Position numbers and translations under genes: made by a program. The notes beneath the pieces are model-generated. The model had not been told where the DNA came from, ran no database searches, and saw only the letters and a program-made list of their open reading frames with translations. Shown here in pieces: positions 14,785 through 22,353 of a DNA stretch of 64,000 nt (position 1 is the stretch's first letter; each line of letters opens with the position of its first letter). The stretch comes from Candidatus Aenigmatarchaeota archaeon (lineage in GTDB: Archaea > Aenigmatarchaeota > Aenigmatarchaeia > QMZP01 > QMZT01), in assembly GCA_026397315.1 (NCBI GenBank), contig JAPLVC010000003.1, positions 41,258 to 105,257 of the forward strand, in the 5' to 3' direction.

Positions 14785-14991
14785 ATAAAGGTTACGCATC
14801 AGTAGTAGATAGAAATAACTAACGTATTGTCGCCAGAATGTCAAGATATTCAATATTGCTAACGAAAAGCTTTCATGACTACTTTAGAAATGAATCATGA
14901 ATCTGCGCTAAAACTTGAAAATTCAACTCAAAAATCACGTGAGAATTAGTCTTTCATCTGAACAAAAAGCAGCTGCCAGAAGGAAAAATCG

Positions 14992-16581
14992 TCATGGACT
15001 ATAGTTTATGAAAGCTTCGTAGAACTTCTTCATAAACATCTTGGCTGTGATGAGCCTGTATTCGACTTGTTCTCCGAACAGATACTGACTCAACATGGCG
15101 TTTGTGATAACCCAAAGATTGTATAATAGCGTTGAAAACATGAAGTAAAAGCAGCGTATCTTGTGATTTTTTGACGTGGTGTTCGGTCGGAACTCATGTT
15201 TTTTGACTCTGTATCCAGTTTCTATGTTCCATCTTTTTCCGTAAAGCCTGAACAGATTGGCGGTATATAACATCAGAGTCGGAAGGTTCGTGATAAAGGC
15301 TACGTCCTTTCCTTCATGATCTCTCTTTACGACCAGCTTCGTTCTGGCTAAATATTTATCGTCGTTGCTTCTCAATTTCATTTCAACGACAGCCGGTGGC
15401 GAACTTCTTTTCATGATTCTTAAAACTCTTTTCGTCTTAACGCCTGGCATCAGATATTTGATTCCCATTTCGTCGAACAGGCTGATGAACTTCGCGGAAT
15501 AGAAACCCCTGTCGACATAGAAATATCTCGCGTCAACCTTGTTTTTCGCGTATTCTATAAGCGTTTTTACGGCTTCCCTTTCGTTAGTGAAAACGCCTAC
15601 GGGCAGAGCCAACAGAGTAAAGTCTCCGTATTTTTCGGCTATCTTGATTGTGACGAACCTGAATCTTTTGCAAGTTCCGAGCTTGTATTCTCCGCCCACG
15701 ACCATCTTATCGGTCTTGTCTCCGTAATACAGCCAATCGTGATAGTCTATCGCCAAGTCCACGGGACCGCTTAACAATCCTCTTGCTTTGGCAATCTTGT
15801 ATATCCTCTCGAAAGCAGCCATGAACATTTCTTTAATCTCTTCAGATTCGAGCTTGGCGAGGTATCCAAGCATGGTTCTCGCATGCGGAACGTTGTCCTT
15901 GAACTCTTTCTCGTCTCTCATGAGCTGGTAGCCTTGATTCGCGAACGTATTGTTGTAAGCGACATAAGCCAGCAGGTCGAGTAAGTTATCTTTGCAATAT
16001 CTCGCCTTGCAGTTCAGGGGAAGCGCAAGCGTAGGGAAAATCTCTTCCCTGAGCAGCCTGATTACTTTGGTTCCTTCCTTGTCTACATGTCTTTTGATAG
16101 TTTTCTCGCACTTCTTGCCAAGATTTTTATCTTCCGCGAAGTCGATGTCGAGCAATTTTCCCTCTTCCTTTGCGATTTCCCTTATCCGTTTCGCCATGAA
16201 GTCGATTATCGATTCGATTTCATCGTCTATTCTTTCGTTCACCATGACGCTGAAGCTTTGCTGACAAGGAAGCGTTCCGTCCTTGTAGCCGAGCAGCTTG
16301 GCTTCTTCCGGTCTTCTTTTCAGATGAGAAATCAGCGAACCGAACGATTTTATGTCTTTTAGCTCTTTGTAAAGAATCGATTTTATTATGGTGAAAGGGT
16401 CATACCTGAGCCTTCGGTCGCCGACCCATGTCTTGTATTTGGTGAGCAGAAGCTTCTCAAGTGAATACAATTCAACCTTAGAGAGAAGAGCCGCTATCGT
16501 GCTTTCTTCTGGTTTAAGCTCCGAAAAAGCTTTTTTAATCTTCAATTCCAAGTCATTACATGTGGTAGGTGTTGTCTGCAT
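14992..16581 (-). CDS. DDE transposase, ISH3 (IS4-like) family, with long N-terminal extension
   Basis: AIDYHDWLYYG, YVDRGFYS, YGKRWNIETGYR motifs. Confidence 0.92.
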   Translation of the reverse strand: MQTTPTTCNDLELKIKKAFSELKPEESTIAALLSKVELYSLEKLLLTKYKTWVGDRRLRYDPFTIIKSILYKELKDIKSFGSLISHLKRRPEEAKLLGYKDGTLPCQQSFSVMVNERIDDEIESIIDFMAKRIREIAKEEGKLLDIDFAEDKNLGKKCEKTIKRHVDKEGTKVIRLLREEIFPTLALPLNCKARYCKDNLLDLLAYVAYNNTFANQGYQLMRDEKEFKDNVPHARTMLGYLAKLESEEIKEMFMAAFERIYKIAKARGLLSGPVDLAIDYHDWLYYGDKTDKMVVGGEYKLGTCKRFRFVTIKIAEKYGDFTLLALPVGVFTNEREAVKTLIEYAKNKVDARYFYVDRGFYSAKFISLFDEMGIKYLMPGVKTKRVLRIMKRSSPPAVVEMKLRSNDDKYLARTKLVVKRDHEGKDVAFITNLPTLMLYTANLFRLYGKRWNIETGYRVKKHEFRPNTTSKNHKIRCFYFMFSTLLYNLWVITNAMLSQYLFGEQVEYRLITAKMFMKKFYEAFINYSP

Positions 16582-16636
16582 GGCTTCACTTCCACCCAAA
16601 GGGTTAGGGGTCCAATCCAGACCCTTTGGATATTGA

Positions 16637-16708
16637 TGCGGCAGGCGGGAATCGAACCCGCATCACCCAGTTGGGAACACCGGTGGGTTGCCGTTACCCC
16701 ACTGCCGC
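16637..16708 (-). tRNA. tRNA-Gly(TCC)-like element with atypical anticodon loop (G32, C37)
   Basis: GCGGCAG/CTGCCGC, GGGT/ACCC, CCGGT-GTTCCCA-ACTGG, GCGGG-TTCGATT-CCCGC, A73; 72 nt. Confidence 0.7.
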
Positions 16709-16863
16709 TTTTTCTTTATAATTCTTCGTCCGATGTACTATTAACTTGGATAGCGTATTTATAAAGGTTATCTATTTTTCGTCCTACAAATTATCAAATA
16801 AACTTATATATAACTTCGTCCTAACTATTATATATAAATACAAAATATTAAGGACGAATTATT

Positions 16864-17130
16864 ATGGAAAAAGAACTGACCGATATTGAACGAAAATTTG
16901 CAGATGAGTTGATCGAAACATTACCATTGGAACCAGAAATAAAGAAAAGTTCAGCAGAAGTGCCAATTATTTATGATGGAAGGCAGTATTCTATTAGGAT
17001 ACCAAAGAAATTTGCAGAGGCACTGAAACTTGATCCAAAAAATGACAGATTTGAGTTTAATATGGAAATTCCACCTTTTAAGGCTAAAGATAATAAACCG
17101 AAATTGATTGGAAAATTGATAAAGGGTTAA
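16864..17130 (+). CDS. AbrB/SpoVT-like DNA-binding protein
   Basis: QYSIRIPKKFAEALKL...DRFEF. Confidence 0.75.
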   Translation: MEKELTDIERKFADELIETLPLEPEIKKSSAEVPIIYDGRQYSIRIPKKFAEALKLDPKNDRFEFNMEIPPFKAKDNKPKLIGKLIKG

Positions 17131-17131
17131 T

Positions 17132-17305
17132 ATGGTAGGTTCAAGACATCTTAATAAAAATGAGCGAATAATTCTCGCACTATTATACAAAGAAAGAAGA
17201 CCTATGAGCATCAGAGAAATATCAAAAAGAACGGGCATAAGCTGGATAACTGTAAAAAAATATCTTAAAACACTTCAAAGCAAAGGTGTGTTGGTGGGTG
17301 GATGA
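17132..17305 (+). CDS. Small winged-HTH protein (57 aa)
   Basis: Manual translation ...ERIILALLYKERRPMSIREISKRTGISWITVKKYLKTLQSKGV. Confidence 0.8.
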   Translation: MVGSRHLNKNERIILALLYKERRPMSIREISKRTGISWITVKKYLKTLQSKGVLVGG

Positions 17306-17424
17306 AAAGAAAAAGGCTTCCGAGAAACAAATGGGAAGTTAACTTTGATAATGTAGGAAGGTTAATTGACACAAGACTTAGGGAACTCGAAAGACAGAGA
17401 AAGAAGAAATTCAAATTCATATAG
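17302..17424 (+). CDS. Small basic protein (40 aa)
   Basis: ATGA-coupled to the HTH gene; fills the gap before the methylase. Confidence 0.5.
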   Translation: MKRKRLPRNKWEVNFDNVGRLIDTRLRELERQRKKKFKFI

Positions 17425-17435
17425 AAGAGATATTT

Positions 17436-18302
17436 ATGGAAAACAAAAAACTAAACATATCGTATTTGAAAACTTGTAATTGTTCGCCTAATCATATCAA
17501 CTGTTTAACTGCTAAAGAATGGGTCAAGGGTCAGGTTGGCATCTGGGAATTCTTTTATGAAAAAAGAGACGTAAGAGACAAGAGCATCCATCCTGCTGTT
17601 TATCCGATTGCTTTGGCATCTCAATGCATCAAACTCTTCACACATAAAGGCGAATTGGTTCTGGATCCGTTTGCTGGCATAGGAACAACACTAATAGCCG
17701 CAAGTGATTTAGAAAGAAATGCGGTAGGTTTCGATTTGAAAAAGGAATATATCGAATTTACAAAGAAGAGATTATCTCAAAAGAAGTTGGAAGAAAAAAC
17801 AAAACAGATACCGATACTTGACGATGCAATAAACATCCCAAAATATTTGAATGAGGAAACAGTGTCTCTTTGTGTAACATCGCCACCATATGCTCACATG
17901 CTTGGCAAGCCTCGCCTTAACAAAAGCATGAGGGGCGACATCAGGAGCAATAATCATTTCAAGGAAGTTCAGCAATATTCCGATAATCCGAGAGATCTCG
18001 GAACCATGACACATGATAAATATGCAGAAGCCTTAACAGAAATCTACAAAGGAATTTTACCATTAATGAAGCCAAGAGCTCACAGTGTAATTAATGTAAA
18101 TGATGTGTGGTGGGAAAACAAGCGCATACCAACACATCTCTATGTCGTTGAAGCTCTTCAAAAAGCAGGTTTTGAACTCAGAAATATTTTAATCTGGGAT
18201 AAGAGAAACCTCGTAAATAAAGTTGGTATCTTCGGATGGCCAAGTAATTACATCAAACTTGGAGCTACTTTTGAATACATTCTGGACTTTTGGAAACCTT
18301 GA
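17436..18302 (+). CDS. Amino (N4-C/N6-A) DNA methyltransferase
   Basis: HPAVYP, DPFAGIGTT (motif I) followed by TSPPY (motif IV). Confidence 0.93.
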   Translation: MENKKLNISYLKTCNCSPNHINCLTAKEWVKGQVGIWEFFYEKRDVRDKSIHPAVYPIALASQCIKLFTHKGELVLDPFAGIGTTLIAASDLERNAVGFDLKKEYIEFTKKRLSQKKLEEKTKQIPILDDAINIPKYLNEETVSLCVTSPPYAHMLGKPRLNKSMRGDIRSNNHFKEVQQYSDNPRDLGTMTHDKYAEALTEIYKGILPLMKPRAHSVINVNDVWWENKRIPTHLYVVEALQKAGFELRNILIWDKRNLVNKVGIFGWPSNYIKLGATFEYILDFWKP

Positions 18303-19248
18303 AGTTATTCCCTTCTCTATCGCATCTATTACAAATTTTATTATATGTTTTTTCACATTTAAAAGTAGATTTCCTTGTTTCTATTTTTATTTCTCTACCG
18401 TCTGGTTTTTTACCTTTAAACTGTTTCAAACATAAATATTCTTTCGGTAATGTGTATCGATATTCTATAATAAAATATTCATAAATTTTATTTAACAGTT
18501 CTGGAGATATTTTAAGTTGGTCACAAATGAACTTCAATTTATCTTCGTGGTCTTTGGCATCAAATGTAGATGATCCTTGCTGCTTCACCGATAAGTCAAT
18601 ATAAAATGGGACTATGCCTTTTTTTAAGATGTTAATAATAATGTCAAGTTCAATTTCAAAACCATTTGCACTCAATTCTAAATCTTTTACAATTGAATGA
18701 TGCATTCCCCAACAACCACACTGACCATCTGGAATTGATTTGTTGAATATAGACTCAACTATGTTTAATTCAAATCTTTCAATCTGATCTCTTGGTTCAC
18801 CCATTCCGAATTTACCTTGTCGACAAGAAAGGCAAACTTTTTCTCCACTTATAAGAGAATCTAACACTTTGAAAATATTATTGAATGATATGTCATTATC
18901 GCCATCAATACATATCACAAAATCATGCACTTTCTCTATGTTTCCATAAACTTCTTTATGCATCTCTTTTAAATAATATCTTATAATATCCCCCTTTTTG
19001 TGTGTTCCAACAAACAAATCTTCTTCGCCAGTATCTGCATTGACAATAATTGGTCTACCTCTCAAAATTGGTATATGATGTGGATTAACATCTCTTTTGG
19101 CAAACTCGTTTTTGTGTTCTCTAAACCAATTTAAGAAATTATTGCAAAGTGTCATTTCATCATCTATTTTGCCCTTAAACATAGGTGTGAGCAAAAGTAG
19201 ATTTTTTACAATAACCATAGAAAATCGCATTTTATTATTTGAATGCAA
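18265..19248 (-). CDS. Divergent GT2-like glycosyltransferase
   Basis: KGDII...ICIDGD...DGQCG...GFEIELDI pattern of DPM-synthase-like GT2 enzymes. Confidence 0.6.
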   Translation of the reverse strand: MHSNNKMRFSMVIVKNLLLLTPMFKGKIDDEMTLCNNFLNWFREHKNEFAKRDVNPHHIPILRGRPIIVNADTGEEDLFVGTHKKGDIIRYYLKEMHKEVYGNIEKVHDFVICIDGDNDISFNNIFKVLDSLISGEKVCLSCRQGKFGMGEPRDQIERFELNIVESIFNKSIPDGQCGCWGMHHSIVKDLELSANGFEIELDIIINILKKGIVPFYIDLSVKQQGSSTFDAKDHEDKLKFICDQLKISPELLNKIYEYFIIEYRYTLPKEYLCLKQFKGKKPDGREIKIETRKSTFKCEKTYNKICNRCDREGNNFKVSKSPECIQK

Positions 19249-19492
19249 ATGAAAATATTTTGTCTACATCCTTATGAAGTCCCTGAATTCCAATTCCCAT
19301 TCCAAATTCAATCATTTTTTCTTGAGAGGGATTATTTTCTCTCGTTTCTTGAGCTATTCTTGGATTATGATAAAATTTAACCGTAATATTAAACTCTTTT
19401 TCTATATCTTTTATATGTAATCCAATAAGATGTGAATTACGACAAATAGGCAAAACAGTGTCCGTCTGTAAATTTTCTAAATCTATCATCAA
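19235..19492 (-). CDS. Small protein resembling a TrkA-C/RCK-C domain
   Basis: SHLIGLHIKDI...FNITV...NPSQEKMIEFG..I.IQG..KDVDK. Confidence 0.55.
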   Translation of the reverse strand: MMIDLENLQTDTVLPICRNSHLIGLHIKDIEKEFNITVKFYHNPRIAQETRENNPSQEKMIEFGMGIGIQGLHKDVDKIFSFAFK

Positions 19493-19612
19493 ATCCCCAT
19501 TTTCATAAATGGGTTATATATTTAAATAATAAAACCCTATTTTTGACACTTATATATAAACTTTACTGTTTTTTGGAATATATACGTTTCTGTTTACTGA
19601 TAAGTAATTAAT

Positions 19613-20368
19613 TCATATAATATTCTTTCTTTTTTGGAAACACATATCGAGTTTGTTAATTTGAACTCTAAATCCAGTCCCATGATCATGTGATCTCCCA
19701 TTTGGATATTGCCCTATCCGTATGTCAACGAGAATATCTCCGCTTTTCAATAGATTAATGAAATTATCGAAACTAAACTCACTAAGCAGCCAAGCTTCAT
19801 TGAACCAGAATTCTTCATTTTTCCCGCTTCCTCTGCATTCTGCCTTAACGAATAACAACTGAGGGAACTTCTTCTCGAAACACTCCCTTAAAATTCTTCT
19901 ATTCCAATACCCCAAAACTTCTTTCTTCTCTTCAGGTTTGTCAGTTAGATATTTCATTATATCCATTGGTGCAGGACCGCCAGACACAAGTTCTACCTTA
20001 TCTTCGCTTACCTCAACTATGAATCCTTGTTTCCCTCTGAGAGTATTGAATTTTAATGTGCTTACCGTGGTATGCAGGTCTGGTTTTTCATTCCCTCTGG
20101 CTTGATACCCGAATCTTTTGAGAAGAACAGAATTGGCACCATCCGGCAAAGGCGATTTTGTGAATAGTGTCAGCATGCTTTTAGCGGTTTTCCTTGTAGA
20201 CTTCAATTCAGCACCCTTCATATCGGGAGTTGGAATGTTATTTTCTGGTATCCCAGTGAGGTCTTCAAGCGTTTTCCCTATCCCAGTTGGACCAGCTCTA
20301 TGAGTTTTAACCCATTTCCTTTCGTTTAGAAGTTTCAACTGTTCTACGACTTCCTCATATGTAAGCAT
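19613..20368 (-). CDS. MvaI/BcnI-family restriction endonuclease
   Basis: TGIGKTLEDLTGIPENN...PD...ELKS...LTLFTKSP...HDHGTGFR. Confidence 0.88.
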   Translation of the reverse strand: MLTYEEVVEQLKLLNERKWVKTHRAGPTGIGKTLEDLTGIPENNIPTPDMKGAELKSTRKTAKSMLTLFTKSPLPDGANSVLLKRFGYQARGNEKPDLHTTVSTLKFNTLRGKQGFIVEVSEDKVELVSGGPAPMDIMKYLTDKPEEKKEVLGYWNRRILRECFEKKFPQLLFVKAECRGSGKNEEFWFNEAWLLSEFSFDNFINLLKSGDILVDIRIGQYPNGRSHDHGTGFRVQINKLDMCFQKRKNII

Positions 20369-20396
20369 ATTTATAATTGGTCGAGACATTAAAAAT

Positions 20397-20696
20397 ATGG
20401 CAAAACAGGTAAAGATTATCAAATGTCCATTTTGTAACGATGGTGACGTTGAGATTACGATGTTTACATCGGTTTTAAACAAAAGAACTGGACCATATGG
20501 CGGCAATAAGCCCAAATTTGAACGTTCAGCCGAGCAGATGTATGTCAATACCATAAAGTGTCCAAAATGCGGGAGATCTGGCAAAGACATACAAAGAGTA
20601 ATGAAAACCGGAAAAACAAAGCAATTATCTCACGAAGAACGCATAGAAATGCTAAAAAAACGAGGCTTACCGCTTGTTCTCGATTCAAAAAACTGA
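20397..20696 (+). CDS. Zn-ribbon protein
   Basis: CPFC...CPKCG. Confidence 0.75.
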   Translation: MAKQVKIIKCPFCNDGDVEITMFTSVLNKRTGPYGGNKPKFERSAEQMYVNTIKCPKCGRSGKDIQRVMKTGKTKQLSHEERIEMLKKRGLPLVLDSKN

Positions 20697-20708
20697 ATTT
20701 ATTTTTAC

Positions 20709-20924
20709 TTACGCTTTCATAATTTTCTTCGCTTTGAGTTTGCCGTCTTTCGGTAAAATGACAATGATATTCTTCCCGATATGCCTTTTGTGGACGGACA
20801 CGTAGCCCGTATTGCCGAGACGTTTTACTTTCTTGACAAACACTTTCTCTACATCATCGACATGAACAGATATCGGAAGTTCGGCTTCGTCTTTCATTGT
20901 CGCTTCAACCCTAACAAATCCCAA
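20709..20924 (-). CDS. DUF2080-like transposon-associated (AbrB-fold) protein
   Basis: KKVKRLGNTGYVSVHKRHIGKNIIVIL. Confidence 0.75.
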   Translation of the reverse strand: MGFVRVEATMKDEAELPISVHVDDVEKVFVKKVKRLGNTGYVSVHKRHIGKNIIVILPKDGKLKAKKIMKA

Positions 20925-21373
20925 CGGTTTAAATATTTTCCTTCTTTATCTCTGAACATTCTTATCGAAGTTTTATTATGTTTTTTACCGGTCTTCCCTG
21001 GTTTGTTCTTCCATTCAGCATGTTCAGTTTTTGTATATTTTGAGACATTCTTACACGGAACTACGAAGAATTCTGGCAATCTTCCTCTTTTCGCTTCATC
21101 TAAATTCACAAAGACATAGAAAAGGTTATCGGATTTAACTACTTCATCATTTTCAGAAAGTATCCACGCTCTCGGTGAATTCTTACCCAATGTTGCTTTA
21201 ACCTGTATGGCTATTGGCTTTTTACCACCACTGTCTGAAACGAGGATGTCTATCCCCTTGGTGTTTCTTGAAGTAATCGTAGCGATATATCCCCGTCTCG
21301 TCAACTCACCGGCAACAAAATGGGTTCCAGAAATTCCGATTAGAGCTTTCGGAATCGATTTTGCATTATTCAT
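20894..21373 (-). CDS. PD-(D/E)xK endonuclease
   Basis: FVAGELTRRGY...GIDILV...IQVKAT. Confidence 0.8.
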   Translation of the reverse strand: MNNAKSIPKALIGISGTHFVAGELTRRGYIATITSRNTKGIDILVSDSGGKKPIAIQVKATLGKNSPRAWILSENDEVVKSDNLFYVFVNLDEAKRGRLPEFFVVPCKNVSKYTKTEHAEWKNKPGKTGKKHNKTSIRMFRDKEGKYLNRWDLLGLKRQ

Positions 21374-21558
21374 TATCCACCTCTTTTCCTTAAAACAACC
21401 TTTCCGTTTTCCATTATAAACACCAGTTCGTCGCCCTTCTTCCAATCAAGCGTTTTAATGATTGAAGTCGGTATGGTGACAAAATGCTTGACATATTCCT
21501 TGCTTCTTTTTTTATCTGCCAAAAGGTTGGTGCTTTTGAATGCTTGAATTCGCGGCAT
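21373..21558 (-). CDS. AbrB/MazE/SpoVT-family DNA-binding protein
   Basis: FVTIPTSIIKTLDWKKGDELVF. Confidence 0.85.
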   Translation of the reverse strand: MPRIQAFKSTNLLADKKRSKEYVKHFVTIPTSIIKTLDWKKGDELVFIMENGKVVLRKRGG

Positions 21559-21673
21559 ATTTGAAATTCAGAAGCTGGGTATAAATTGTTATGTTTAAAC
21601 ATTTTTTGGTGATATTTTTGCCATATATCGGTTTACAAAATTATTGGTAACTTTTGTCATTTCCAACTACTGT

Positions 21674-21743
21674 CAGGCTTTGCACATTAAGTCCTTGATT
21701 TAAGCGACTATTTGTGCAGGAGCTACTATTTGTGCAAAGCCTA
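21674..21743. mobile_element. 70-bp MITE or deleted IS remnant
   Basis: CAGGCTTTGCACA ... TGTGCAAAGCCTA terminal inverted repeats, followed by CGCAT. Confidence 0.65.
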
Positions 21744-21762
21744 CGCATCACGCACGCATCAG

Positions 21763-22353
21763 TCAGCCAGCATTCAGAACGTGTAACGTTATCGGCACGT
21801 TGGAGCCGAAATTAGTCGTGTTTTCCAGGCAGTCGCCGAACTTCATGTCCCTGCACGCGACCGCGTTATACATGTATGTCCCGGCAGGCGTGCCGTCGGG
21901 GATGCGTATTTTTATCGAATAAAGGTCCACGTATCCGTAGCTCACGAGCGTCGAGTTATCCGGTTGTTCCATCATCACCCGCATGCGAGTGAGGAGCGGC
22001 TCGCACGTCGTGAAATGCAGGCACTGGTAAGCCGCCATCACGTCGAAATCCGCGGCTGAAGGGAATACCTTGGCGACGAACATGTGCGCCTCTTCATCGT
22101 CCGCGAAGTTGTTGAAGACGACGTCAAATCCCACCGTGTCATTCGCCTTCAGCCAGAACACGCCGTCGCCGTTTATCTTGAATGTGAAGTCATTCGACAC
22201 GGATATCTGCGAGCCGTTGGTGGAATTATCCAGCGTTTTGTTGTAGTATTCGTATTCCGTGGTCTCGTTTACGTCCTTGACGCCTCTGCCGACACATCCG
22301 CTTGCCGCGACGAGCGCGACCAGCGCGAAAGCGATAACAAACGAAACTCTCAT
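21763..22353 (-). CDS. Secreted or lipoprotein-like hypothetical protein
   Basis: Hydrophobic N-terminus with ASGC lipobox-like motif; NxS/T sites. Confidence 0.75.
   Translation of the reverse strand: MRVSFVIAFALVALVAASGCVGRGVKDVNETTEYEYYNKTLDNSTNGSQISVSNDFTFKINGDGVFWLKANDTVGFDVVFNNFADDEEAHMFVAKVFPSAADFDVMAAYQCLHFTTCEPLLTRMRVMMEQPDNSTLVSYGYVDLYSIKIRIPDGTPAGTYMYNAVACRDMKFGDCLENTTNFGSNVPITLHVLNAG

Follow-up and report, generated by a model that had tools for sequence, protein, structure and literature searches.

A look-alike of glycine tRNA, with an aberrant anticodon loop, in the transposase leader of a DPANN archaeon

A stretch of archaeal DNA of 64,000 nucleotides (the window) carries what looks like a glycine tRNA gene in the leader of a transposase gene. 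The location raises the question of what such an RNA is for: decoding, the maturation of the transposase message, some other task, or nothing at all. The leader contains the following features.

16637-16708, minus strand: tRNA-Gly(UCC)-like gene, 72 nt (ARAGORN, Rfam RF00005, sequence)
16758-16765, minus strand: TTTATAAA box, TATA-like (sequence, alignment with L017)
16596-16629, minus strand: hairpin CCAAAGGGU / ACCCUUUGG, 9 bp with a 16-nt loop (sequence, consensus fold)
16582-16595, minus strand: GGUGGAAG, a Shine-Dalgarno-like box (GGUGGA) and spacer (sequence)
16725-16858, both strands: four GGACGAA repeats, at 16725, 16778 and 16815 on the minus strand and at 16852 on the plus strand (pattern count)

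ARAGORN calls the cloverleaf tRNA-Gly(tcc), and the Rfam model RF00005, whose gathering score is 29, assigns it 52.4 bits (E 1.5e-9). The acceptor stem (GCGGCAG/CUGCCGC), the D stem (GGGU/ACCC), the anticodon stem (CCGGU/ACUGG) and the T stem (GCGGG/CCCGC) can be read directly from the sequence, and all four pair, as the first-pass annotation of this DNA had claimed along with a Gly-like acceptor ending in A73. The nucleotides that hold the tertiary structure of a tRNA are all present (U8, A14, G18G19, U54-U55-C56 and A58), and so is the glycine identity set (C2-G71, G3-C70, C35, C36 and A73); the discriminator A73 is followed by U, and CCA is not encoded. The anticodon loop GUUCCCA has 7 nt and places G at position 32 and C at position 37, a real breach, also pointed out in that annotation, of the rule by which canonical tRNAs have a pyrimidine at 32 and a purine at 37. 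Thermodynamic folding of the single sequence gave a z-score of -1.44, which is not significant, and its MFE fold did not recover the cloverleaf; the case for the structure therefore rests on the covariance-model score and on comparative data.

Known tRNAs very rarely have a pyrimidine at position 37. A census of 46 distinct intron-less tRNAs, sampled from this genome, its relatives and the fetched loci, gave A at position 37 in 31 cases and G in 13; the only 2 with C were both transposon-leader tRNAs. C37 exceeds chance, with no occurrence in the other 44 sampled tRNAs, and G32 is found in the window copy and in none of the remaining 45. The normal tRNA-Gly(UCC) of the genus has the loop CUUCCAA, as do at least 8 chromosomal tRNA-Gly(UCC) genes of the phylum; it sits elsewhere and differs in sequence from the window copy, and its locus in this assembly is interrupted by foreign DNA at a contig end. 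A full-length match to the window tRNA-like was found in none of 60 relatives.

The look-alike travels in a cargo transposon, with the following parts.

14803-21672, no strand: cargo transposon, about 6.87 kb (empty site, composition, ends)
14800-14819, plus strand: left inverted end CAGTAGTAGATAGAAATAAC, downstream of the transposase gene
21656-21672, minus strand: right inverted end CAGTAGTTGGAAATGAC, as read on the minus strand
14992-16581, minus strand: DDE transposase, IS4/ISH3-like long form, 529 aa (Pfam DDE_Tnp_1, 1.1e-8)
16864-17130, plus strand: divergent ORF of 88 aa, weakly similar to AbrB/MazE-type DNA-binding proteins (PF04014, E 0.0025, under the cut-off)
17436-18302, plus strand: N6/N4 DNA methyltransferase, cargo (Pfam N6_N4_Mtase, 9.5e-30)
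19613-20590, minus strand: MvaI/BcnI-family restriction endonuclease, cargo (PF15515, 1.6e-46; syntenic in L115)
20894-21445, minus strand: cargo ORF of 183 aa, weakly similar to Mrr-type nucleases (Mrr_cat, E 0.0033, under the cut-off)

The carrier is mobile. Its GC content is 31-45% against 50-58% in the flanks, TCAG borders it on both sides (14799-14802 and 21673-21676), and its inverted ends are imperfect, with homologues of the left end in L115 (6749-6762) and L017 (3296-3309). The same-genus genome G003 has a precise empty site (GCATCGGGCTT versus GCATCAGGCTT), and the whole 6.9-kb insertion is absent from G002, G003 and G004. The window tRNA-like is thus not a syntenic host tRNA, which was the case that the first-pass annotation had named against its own view; its placement of the cloverleaf inside the inverted ends of a transposon, in the leader of the transposase, is borne out. 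The transposase scores 129.6 bits with the NCBIfam ISH3 model NF033541, below the cut-off of 225, over residues 229-492, and has 278 homologues at E<=1e-20. Like ISH3/IS4-type elements (NF033541, PF01609), the carrier has a DDE transposase, short inverted ends starting with CAG and a 4-bp flanking repeat; unlike them, it encodes a transposase that is about 140 aa longer and falls below the ISH3 cut-off, and it extends over 6.9 kb with restriction-modification cargo. Such cargo also occurs in L115 and L125, and the methyltransferase gene shares 75% nucleotide identity with L115 3102-3955. The literature searched revealed no tRNA-like leader in ISH3/IS4-type families.

An arrangement in which a family targets tRNA genes, the tRNA lying outside the IS, was considered and rejected for the clade of the window element: the element ends are kilobases away, the upstream genes are syntenic with those of L115 and L017, and the empty site lacks the unit in its entirety. 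In relatives without the tRNA-like, the left end lies 260-360 nt (or kilobases) 5' of the transposase ATG.

Read on the minus strand, the leader runs from the TATA-like box over 50 nt to the tRNA-like and, after 7 nt more, into the hairpin. The Shine-Dalgarno-like box follows, and then the transposase ATG (16581-16579), which lies 55 nt past the end of the tRNA-like; the TATA-like box, cloverleaf, hairpin and start codon are all where they had first been annotated. From its sequence, TTTATAAA is likely the archaeal TATA box of a joint tRNA-like/transposase transcript. It belongs to a block, GATAAC(C)TTTATAAATA, that is also present in L017, a homologue without the tRNA-like. This TATA box is found only upstream of the tRNA-like, which shares its strand with the transposase gene, and the 55-nt gap between the tRNA-like and the ATG holds only the hairpin and the Shine-Dalgarno-like box, with no promoter motif, no room for one and no T-run. 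The hairpin is conserved about 41-50 nt 5' of the ATG in many family members (CCAAAG motif, 13 loci), and the Shine-Dalgarno-like box recurs in L115, L017 and G041. Farther upstream, 4 of the window's 20 copies of GGACGAA cluster in the 155-nt divergent intergenic region, an arrangement that is operator-like; L017 has four CGTACGA repeats in their place.

Five further loci have a homologous or analogous tRNA-like at the same leader position and on the same strand (L115, L125, L195, L197 and G041), in cargo transposons of DPANN and Thermoplasmatota-type archaea. Rfam scores are 44.5 bits for L115 and 55.2 bits for L125, and the L195 and L197 copies were detected by our covariance model R1 only. 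In the window, L115 and L125 alike, exactly 7 nt separate the tRNA-like from the hairpin, and all six copies have the same tetranucleotide GCAU, which is made up of the last two bases of the acceptor stem, A73 and U74. In G041 the module precedes a transposase of another family, IS5, together with the Shine-Dalgarno-like box and the first five codons of the window gene; no clear inverted ends were found for this IS5-like element. These related copies at the same site of other archaeal transposons suggest a reusable RNA module.

The distribution of the module is patchy. The first-pass annotation had held that a lack of the upstream cloverleaf in homologous transposases would speak against it; about 78 of the 83 full-length relatives with a complete upstream region, among the matches listed, indeed lack it, and five other elements possess it, the module being found in 5 of these 83 family members and in one other element. 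The metagenome relatives whose leaders were compared are, among the matches listed, at most 52% identical to the transposase, whose closest protein relatives are P0002 (87%) and P0003-P0009 (57-67%). Since most homologous transposases do without it, the cloverleaf counts as an accessory rather than as a trait of the family. Sister transposases without the module are L116 for the window, L017 for L115, L206 and L117 for L195, and L484, L471 and L122 for L125; in this last case the homology breaks off within the hairpin. A BLAST search with the L115 leader over 371 phylum genomes matched only G041 and this genome, and R1 run over 151 phylum genomes returned mostly ordinary tRNAs (50-62 bits), G041 (71 bits) being the only informative match. 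A degenerate 45-nt leader pattern occurred in one contig only, probably that of G041 itself, and in none of the viral contigs, in which the transposase profile likewise found no real relative.

Comparison of the copies shows that no other part of the leader is conserved as well as the tRNA-like. Between the window and L115 it is 76% identical, against 38% for the upstream region and 52% for the hairpin; between L115 and G041 the identity is 97%, with 35% and 19% in the flanks. The stems stay paired across transposases that are just 35-52% identical. In a five-sequence alignment, which was fitted to the structure of model R1 and three of whose rows had built that model, 92.7% of the cells pair, against 72.5% after shuffling and 39-52% after sliding, with compensatory changes in 19 of 31 pairs and with the acceptor and T stems 97% and 96% paired. 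The search for stem covariation that had been proposed thus found compensatory changes among the leader copies. It had been expected to reveal a variable anticodon loop as well; instead, UUCCCA is conserved in the four Gly-type copies (window, L115, L125 and G041) as their most conserved odd feature, C37 being common to all four.

Features of a decoding tRNA have decayed in several copies. L115 and G041 have a T-loop UGCAAUU, with G55, and a D loop without GG, so that the elbow contacts between G18G19 and U55 are lost, and in L195 and L197 insertions of 17-34 nt replace the anticodon loop. The acceptor stem, the T-arm and A73-U74 are retained in all six copies. The earlier proposal of selection for shape rather than decoding fits these homologues, which keep the minihelix without the elbow or the anticodon loop; decoding may still apply to the window copy, which is intact and resides in a GGA-rich element.

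Leader RNAs have a wider bearing on transposition, non-coding RNAs in transposase leaders having recently proved central to several systems, while for archaeal DDE transposons we know of no leader RNA. The explanation that we favour, tentatively and with slightly less than even confidence, is that the module is a portable, co-transcribed "t-element" that is excised by RNase P and RNase Z. Transcription would begin at the TATA box 50 nt upstream and continue through the tRNA-like into the transposase gene; neither a promoter nor a T-run separates the two. The host RNase P and RNase Z would recognise the acceptor/T-arm minihelix and excise the tRNA-like, with the RNase Z cut falling after A73 and ahead of the invariant U74, so that the transposase mRNA would start 7 nt before the stable hairpin and the Shine-Dalgarno-like box. 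Excision would fix the 5' end of the mRNA, and hence its stability or translatability, and uncouple the message from the primary transcript. The change from A37 to C probably keeps the excised RNA from normal decoding, or else serves another contact, and recombination would have carried the module into the leaders of various transposons, one of them belonging to another IS family. The processing enzymes are represented in the host: RNase Z at 319.9 bits, which exceeds its cut-off, and a probable RNase P RNA, matched over the full length by the archaeal model at 58 bits (E 5e-16), which falls short of the gathering score of 84.

The t-elements of Haloferax volcanii (Holzle et al. 2008, 2012, as described in PMC4326828 and PMC4946936) are reported to be tRNA-shaped, co-transcribed sequences beside 5S rRNA that are cut by RNase P and tRNase Z, and that are used as engineered flanks. 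The mechanism proposed here is the same, in that the cuts define the end of a neighbouring RNA. Unlike the t-elements as described there, the module in this case adjoins the mRNA of a transposase, on a mobile element; its processing is predicted, it moves from one element to another, and its Gly-type copies have the C37 loop in common. If processing occurs as proposed, mobile elements would borrow the universal tRNA-maturation enzymes to shape their transposase mRNA, and the module would provide a compact natural part for defining archaeal RNA ends. Several observations weigh against the t-element reading. About 78 of the 83 family members do without the module, which is hence dispensable; the window copy retains the nucleotides expected of a working tRNA-Gly; and the conservation of UUCCCA, with its C37, in copies with a decayed elbow is not explained by processing. 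An RNase P/RNase Z signal, already considered in the first-pass annotation, agrees with the acceptor stem, T-arm and A73-U74 kept everywhere and less well with the loss of the D/T-loop elbow, which would weaken recognition by RNase P.

The retained nucleotides are what a cargo tRNA would need, and the main rival reading, possible but doubtful, is a working tRNA-Gly(UCC) that aids decoding of GGA and GGG, codons used far more by the AT-rich transposon genes than by the host. Its leader position would then follow from its merely sharing the promoter of the element. The score of 52.4 bits falls within the range of the host tRNAs (26-70 bits, Rfam), and the tertiary nucleotides and identity set are intact in the window copy. 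In 230 long host ORFs, 18% of the Gly codons are GGA and 10% are GGG, compared with 38% and 17% in the transposon genes (28% compared with 55% for the two together), and 14 of the 24 Gly codons of the transposase are GGA; these figures are confounded by low GC, from which GGA enrichment is expected anyway. The interruption of the native locus in this assembly also speaks for this reading. The tRNAs that phages, plasmids and other mobile elements carry as cargo show canonical anticodon loops and mostly occur singly or in arrays. Like them, the look-alike lies in foreign, compositionally distinct DNA that favours the codon it reads (GGA); unlike them, it occupies a transposase leader, combines G32 with C37, and has relatives without decoding features, the closest homologues L115 and G041 lacking G18G19 and U55, and L195 and L197 lacking the anticodon loop. 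Also against decoding, the module recurs specifically 5' of transposase start codons, and C37 and G32 are absent from the other sampled tRNAs and from at least 8 chromosomal tRNA-Gly(UCC) genes of the phylum. A working C37 tRNA, borne by a transposon, would count among the few natural departures from the purine-37 rule.

We consider it unlikely that the module is a functionless relic, a tRNA gene captured by or lying beside an ancestral element and hitch-hiking since. The patchy distribution, with frequent gains or losses on the transposase tree, would suit such an origin, as would tRNA-likes at other sites in related transposons (L018, L196). A relic would hardly be kept paired by compensatory changes and conserved far better than the flanking leader, with a fixed position, strand and 7-nt spacing and a shared C37, nor be transferred onto an unrelated transposase, as in G041.

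The persistence of UUCCCA in elbow-decayed copies could point to a regulatory or defensive RNA acting through its anticodon loop, a reading that we regard as quite unlikely. The UUCC could pair in cis with a GGAA/GGAG Shine-Dalgarno box until the tRNA-like is removed, the transposase or the small divergent regulator could use the RNA as a platform, or anticodon nucleases could be drawn to it as a decoy, an idea raised by the defence genes of the element. A GGAA or GGAG does lie 9-13 nt 5' of the ATG in the window, L115 and L125, and these three have restriction-modification cargo. However, any tRNA-Gly(UCC) loop complements GGAA, C37 contributes nothing to the pairing, the loop is missing in L195 and L197, and inspection by eye revealed no consistent loop-loop complementarity with the hairpin.

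A broader and rather improbable proposal makes the C37 look-alike an active RNA component of transposon biology, beyond a cutting signal. It might be a disarmed tRNA whose conserved UUCCCA loop steers the translation or the frame of the transposase, or couples transposase expression to the state of the machinery with which the host processes or charges its tRNAs; on this view it would be swapped as a cassette among unrelated archaeal transposase genes. It is very improbable that the element uses the look-alike, with UCCC as its anticodon, for +1 frameshifting or quadruplet decoding in the manner of the sufD-type suppressor, a tRNA-Gly with an extra C in its anticodon loop: L115 and G041 do fold best with an 8-nt loop (CUUCCCAU; ARAGORN anticodon "tccc"), and the extra C relative to CUUCCAA resembles expanded-loop suppressors, but the loops of the window and L125 have 7 nt, the transposase ORFs are all uninterrupted, no GGGA shift site was seen at the one overlapping-ORF pair of the element, and neither a frameshift site nor a need for one is evident.

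Some candidates were discarded. The anticodon arm was compared with the transposon end as a possible mimic (TTCCCAACT versus TTTCCAACT), an idea rejected because a canonical Gly loop fits the end better than the C37 form. An exact 17-mer of the anticodon arm gave 84 bacterial chance matches in genome contigs, none in a Gly(tcc) tRNA, and the pattern TTCCCA..GCAT..CCAAAGG gave 200 loci in genome and viral contigs, all by chance, with no tRNA at the match. Of the related transposons with tRNA-likes elsewhere, L018 and L196 have theirs about 420 nt upstream, and L196 also has one in the 3' region.

The leader of a 529-aa DDE transposase gene (ORF 14992–16581; Pfam DDE_Tnp_1 match; 129.6 bits to the NCBIfam ISH3 model, below its cut-off) carries a tRNA-like cloverleaf upstream of the coding sequence. 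The Rfam tRNA match spans the whole model (52.4 bits, E 1.5e-9; gathering score 29), and a search of the leader returned tRNA and no other family. All four stems pair, as the first-pass annotation had claimed. The anticodon loop reads GUUCCCA (G32, U33, UCC, C37, A38). GG is present in the D loop and UUCGAUU forms the T loop; the discriminator base is A, with no CCA encoded. Single-sequence folding was not significant (z −1.44); the case for the tRNA-like rests on the covariance score and on comparisons.

Features of the leader and of the element ends
16758–16765: TTTATAAA box, upstream of the tRNA-like (sequence)
16637–16708, minus strand: tRNA-like, called tRNA-Gly(tcc) by ARAGORN
16596–16629: hairpin of 9 bp, 7 nt past the tRNA-like (sequence)
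Between the hairpin and the transposase ATG (16581): GGUGGAAG (sequence)
14800: left end, imperfect inverted repeat, CAGTAGTAGATAGAAATAAC
21672, read inward: right end, imperfect inverted repeat, CAGTAGTTGGAAATGAC

The inverted ends, and the absence of 14801–21772 from all three same-genus genomes compared, bear out the earlier placement of the tRNA-like inside a transposon. In genome G003, which is ~90% identical in the flanks, both sides of the insertion abut as an empty site. TCAG flanks the element on both sides, and the junction without the element and one TCAG reads GCATCAGGCTT, where G003 has GCATCGGGCTT. The inserted block has a GC content of 31–45%, against 50–58% in its surroundings, and its end sequence also closes the homologous elements at L115 and L017, two loci encoding relatives of the transposase. 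Among the cargo genes are an N6/N4 DNA methyltransferase and an MvaI/BcnI-family endonuclease; one further ORF gives a weak Mrr-like match, and a small divergent ORF weakly matches AbrB/MazE-like proteins. The precise empty site, inverted ends and cargo thus place the tRNA-like within a 6.87-kb cargo transposon, present as a single copy in its own genome, and the tRNA-like is not a syntenic host gene.

A further ~95 nt at 21673–21772, also absent from the G003 empty site, contain a palindromic unit of ~65 nt (GGCTTTGCACA ... TGTGCAAAGCC) followed by ACGCATC repeats, a motif found again just before the transposon; this segment resembles a small MITE-like insertion added at the transposon's site. 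Cargo transposons of 6–7 kb are common in the transposase family (L123 2554–9839; L125 4800–7750; L115 880–6762), and restriction-modification genes are a recurrent cargo: the window and L115 have the MvaI/BcnI type, L125 the TdeIII type.

At least ~190 loci with a relative of the transposase were collected, and in 83 the gene is full-length. A hairpin 41–50 nt upstream of the ATG is widespread among these loci. In tRNA-less members the element begins on its left side 260–360 nt to the 5′ side, in some cases several kilobases, which makes the leader internal to the element. Immediately 5′ of the hairpin, on the transposase strand, a tRNA-like was found at at least four further loci, and another precedes a transposase gene of a different family in genome G041.

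Further copies of the tRNA-like module
L115: transposase 52% identical to the window's; Rfam tRNA 44.5 bits; methylase/endonuclease cargo as in the window
L125: transposase 35% identical to the window's; Rfam 55.2 bits; ARAGORN Gly tcc; TdeIII-type endonuclease cargo
L195, L197: detected by R1, our own model of the leader tRNA-like, alone; clear acceptor stem and T-arm
L534 (G041:C2 1405–2648): sixth copy; precedes a 348-aa IS5-family DDE transposase

At L195 and L197, insertions of 17 and 34 nt replace the anticodon loop; ARAGORN made no call at either locus, and Rfam tRNA had no match at L195. The G041 tRNA-like is 96–97% identical to that of L115, against 19–35% in the flanks. Its leader lacks the hairpin; its SD box and opening five codons (MQTTP) match those of the window transposase, to which the IS5-family protein is just 22% identical in the DDE core. 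This leader is a mosaic of an L115-type tRNA-like, a window-type SD box with first codons, and an IS5-family gene. On the transposase tree the carriers are scattered and have sisters without the module (L017 for L115; L116 for the window; L484, L471 and L122 for L125; L206 and L117 for L195). L125 and L484 are 84% identical from mid-hairpin onwards and unrelated upstream. Together with the scattered carriers and the G041 mosaic, this break argues that the module spreads through recombination at or near the leader.

Other tRNA-likes and repeats were seen in related transposons. Two odd tRNA-likes with non-canonical T loops lie ~420 nt upstream of the transposase, one with an 8-nt loop (L018 991–1062; ARAGORN 'tgct') and one with an irregular loop (L196 1010–1081; ARAGORN 'gg'), and a third sits after the transposase stop codon and before the right end (L196 3139–3215; Rfam 33.9 bits). 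At L128 7849–7920, L130 7738–7810 and L122 7778–7810, an inverted repeat of 7–10 bp (ACUACUAGUA ... UACUAGUAGU; spacer 6 to ~50 nt) stands in place of the tRNA-like before the hairpin; these loci are tRNA-less, Thermoplasmatota-type members of the family.

In a five-sequence alignment, 92.7% of cells are paired, compared with 72.5% in shuffles and 39–52% with slid partners; this alignment had been fitted to the model, which was itself built from three of these rows. Both-sided changes occur in 19 of the 31 pairs, with G1-C72 and C2-G71 invariant. All six copies share GCAU, made up of the final two bases of the acceptor stem plus A73 and U74, and in three of them 7 nt separate the tRNA-like from the hairpin. 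Between the window and L115, identity is 76% in the tRNA-like, 38% in the upstream leader and 52% in the hairpin. UUCCCA is found in all four Gly-type copies (window, L115, L125, G041), being retained in L115 and G041 despite the loss of both elbow-contact partners (D loop without GG; G at 55). Among 46 distinct intron-less tRNAs from the window's own genome, its relatives and the fetched loci, 31 have A at position 37 and 13 have G; the two with C are the window and L125 copies. All chromosomal tRNA-Gly(UCC) genes seen have the loop CUUCCAA.

On the basis of these six copies, we read the tRNA-like as a module of the leader that derives from a tRNA, is portable and would be excised by tRNA-maturation enzymes. 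Co-transcription with the transposase gene is the simplest reading because no promoter fits between the tRNA-like and the ATG. Host RNase P and RNase Z would then excise the tRNA-like, the cut after A73 would yield an mRNA starting 7 nt upstream of the stable hairpin, and excision may alter transposase expression in either direction. Conservation falls on the features that RNase P and RNase Z rely on, namely the acceptor stem, the T-arm, the discriminator, a nucleotide other than C after it and the absence of CCA; several copies show decay of the decoding parts. The host has a gene for RNase Z (319.9 bits) and a full-length RNase P RNA match of 58 bits, below the gathering score. In Haloferax, t-elements (tRNA-shaped RNAs in a shared transcript) work by such excision, as described in PMC4326828 and PMC4946936; the mechanism is alike, the present one being a proposal. 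Among the papers searched on tRNA-like elements in connection with transposases, with insertion sequences or in archaea, this Haloferax work came up and nothing on IS leaders. We class the window tRNA-like as a t-element-like module employed by transposons, with a C37 signature.

Alternatively, the window copy could function as a tRNA. It retains its tertiary and Gly-identity nucleotides, and GGA makes up 38% of Gly codons in the element, 18% in the host and 14 of 24 in the transposase; C37 and G32 in this copy and the decay of its homologues speak against decoding. The native tRNA-Gly(UCC) of the genus is canonical, is dissimilar in sequence to the transposon copy and adjoins tRNA-Pro and tRNA-Thr in same-genus genomes. 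Its syntenic flank in the window's own genome (1.05 Mb in 7 contigs) is the beginning of contig C4, where C4:441–455 corresponds to the last ~15 nt of the gene and C4:1–440 is AT-rich foreign sequence reaching the contig end. An element has probably integrated into the native gene, with C4:1–455 as one of its junctions; the other junction, where the intact tRNA-Gly(UCC) would sit, lies outside the assembly. The closest relatives of this genome that carry a name are Candidatus Aenigmatarchaeota. Only 7 tRNA genes are called in it unless introns are allowed, the remainder being called solely in intron mode. With a completeness of 91%, the genome yields fewer than 30 detected tRNAs; several tRNA genes must therefore be split, permuted or missing from the assembly.

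A passive relic is disfavoured, as the stems covary, the position is fixed and the module has been transferred onto another transposase family. Loop-based regulation, a decoy role and quadruplet decoding are less likely, with nothing specific in their favour. On quadruplet decoding, the best fold of L115 and G041 has an 8-nt loop, and every transposase reading frame is intact.

Between the window tRNA-like and a divergent 88-aa gene lie four GGACGAA repeats (16725–16858). In the tRNA-less homologue L017, the matching places hold four CGTACGA repeats, which indicates that repeat and element change in step; the GGACGAA repeats are likely an operator array for the small regulator or for the transposase.
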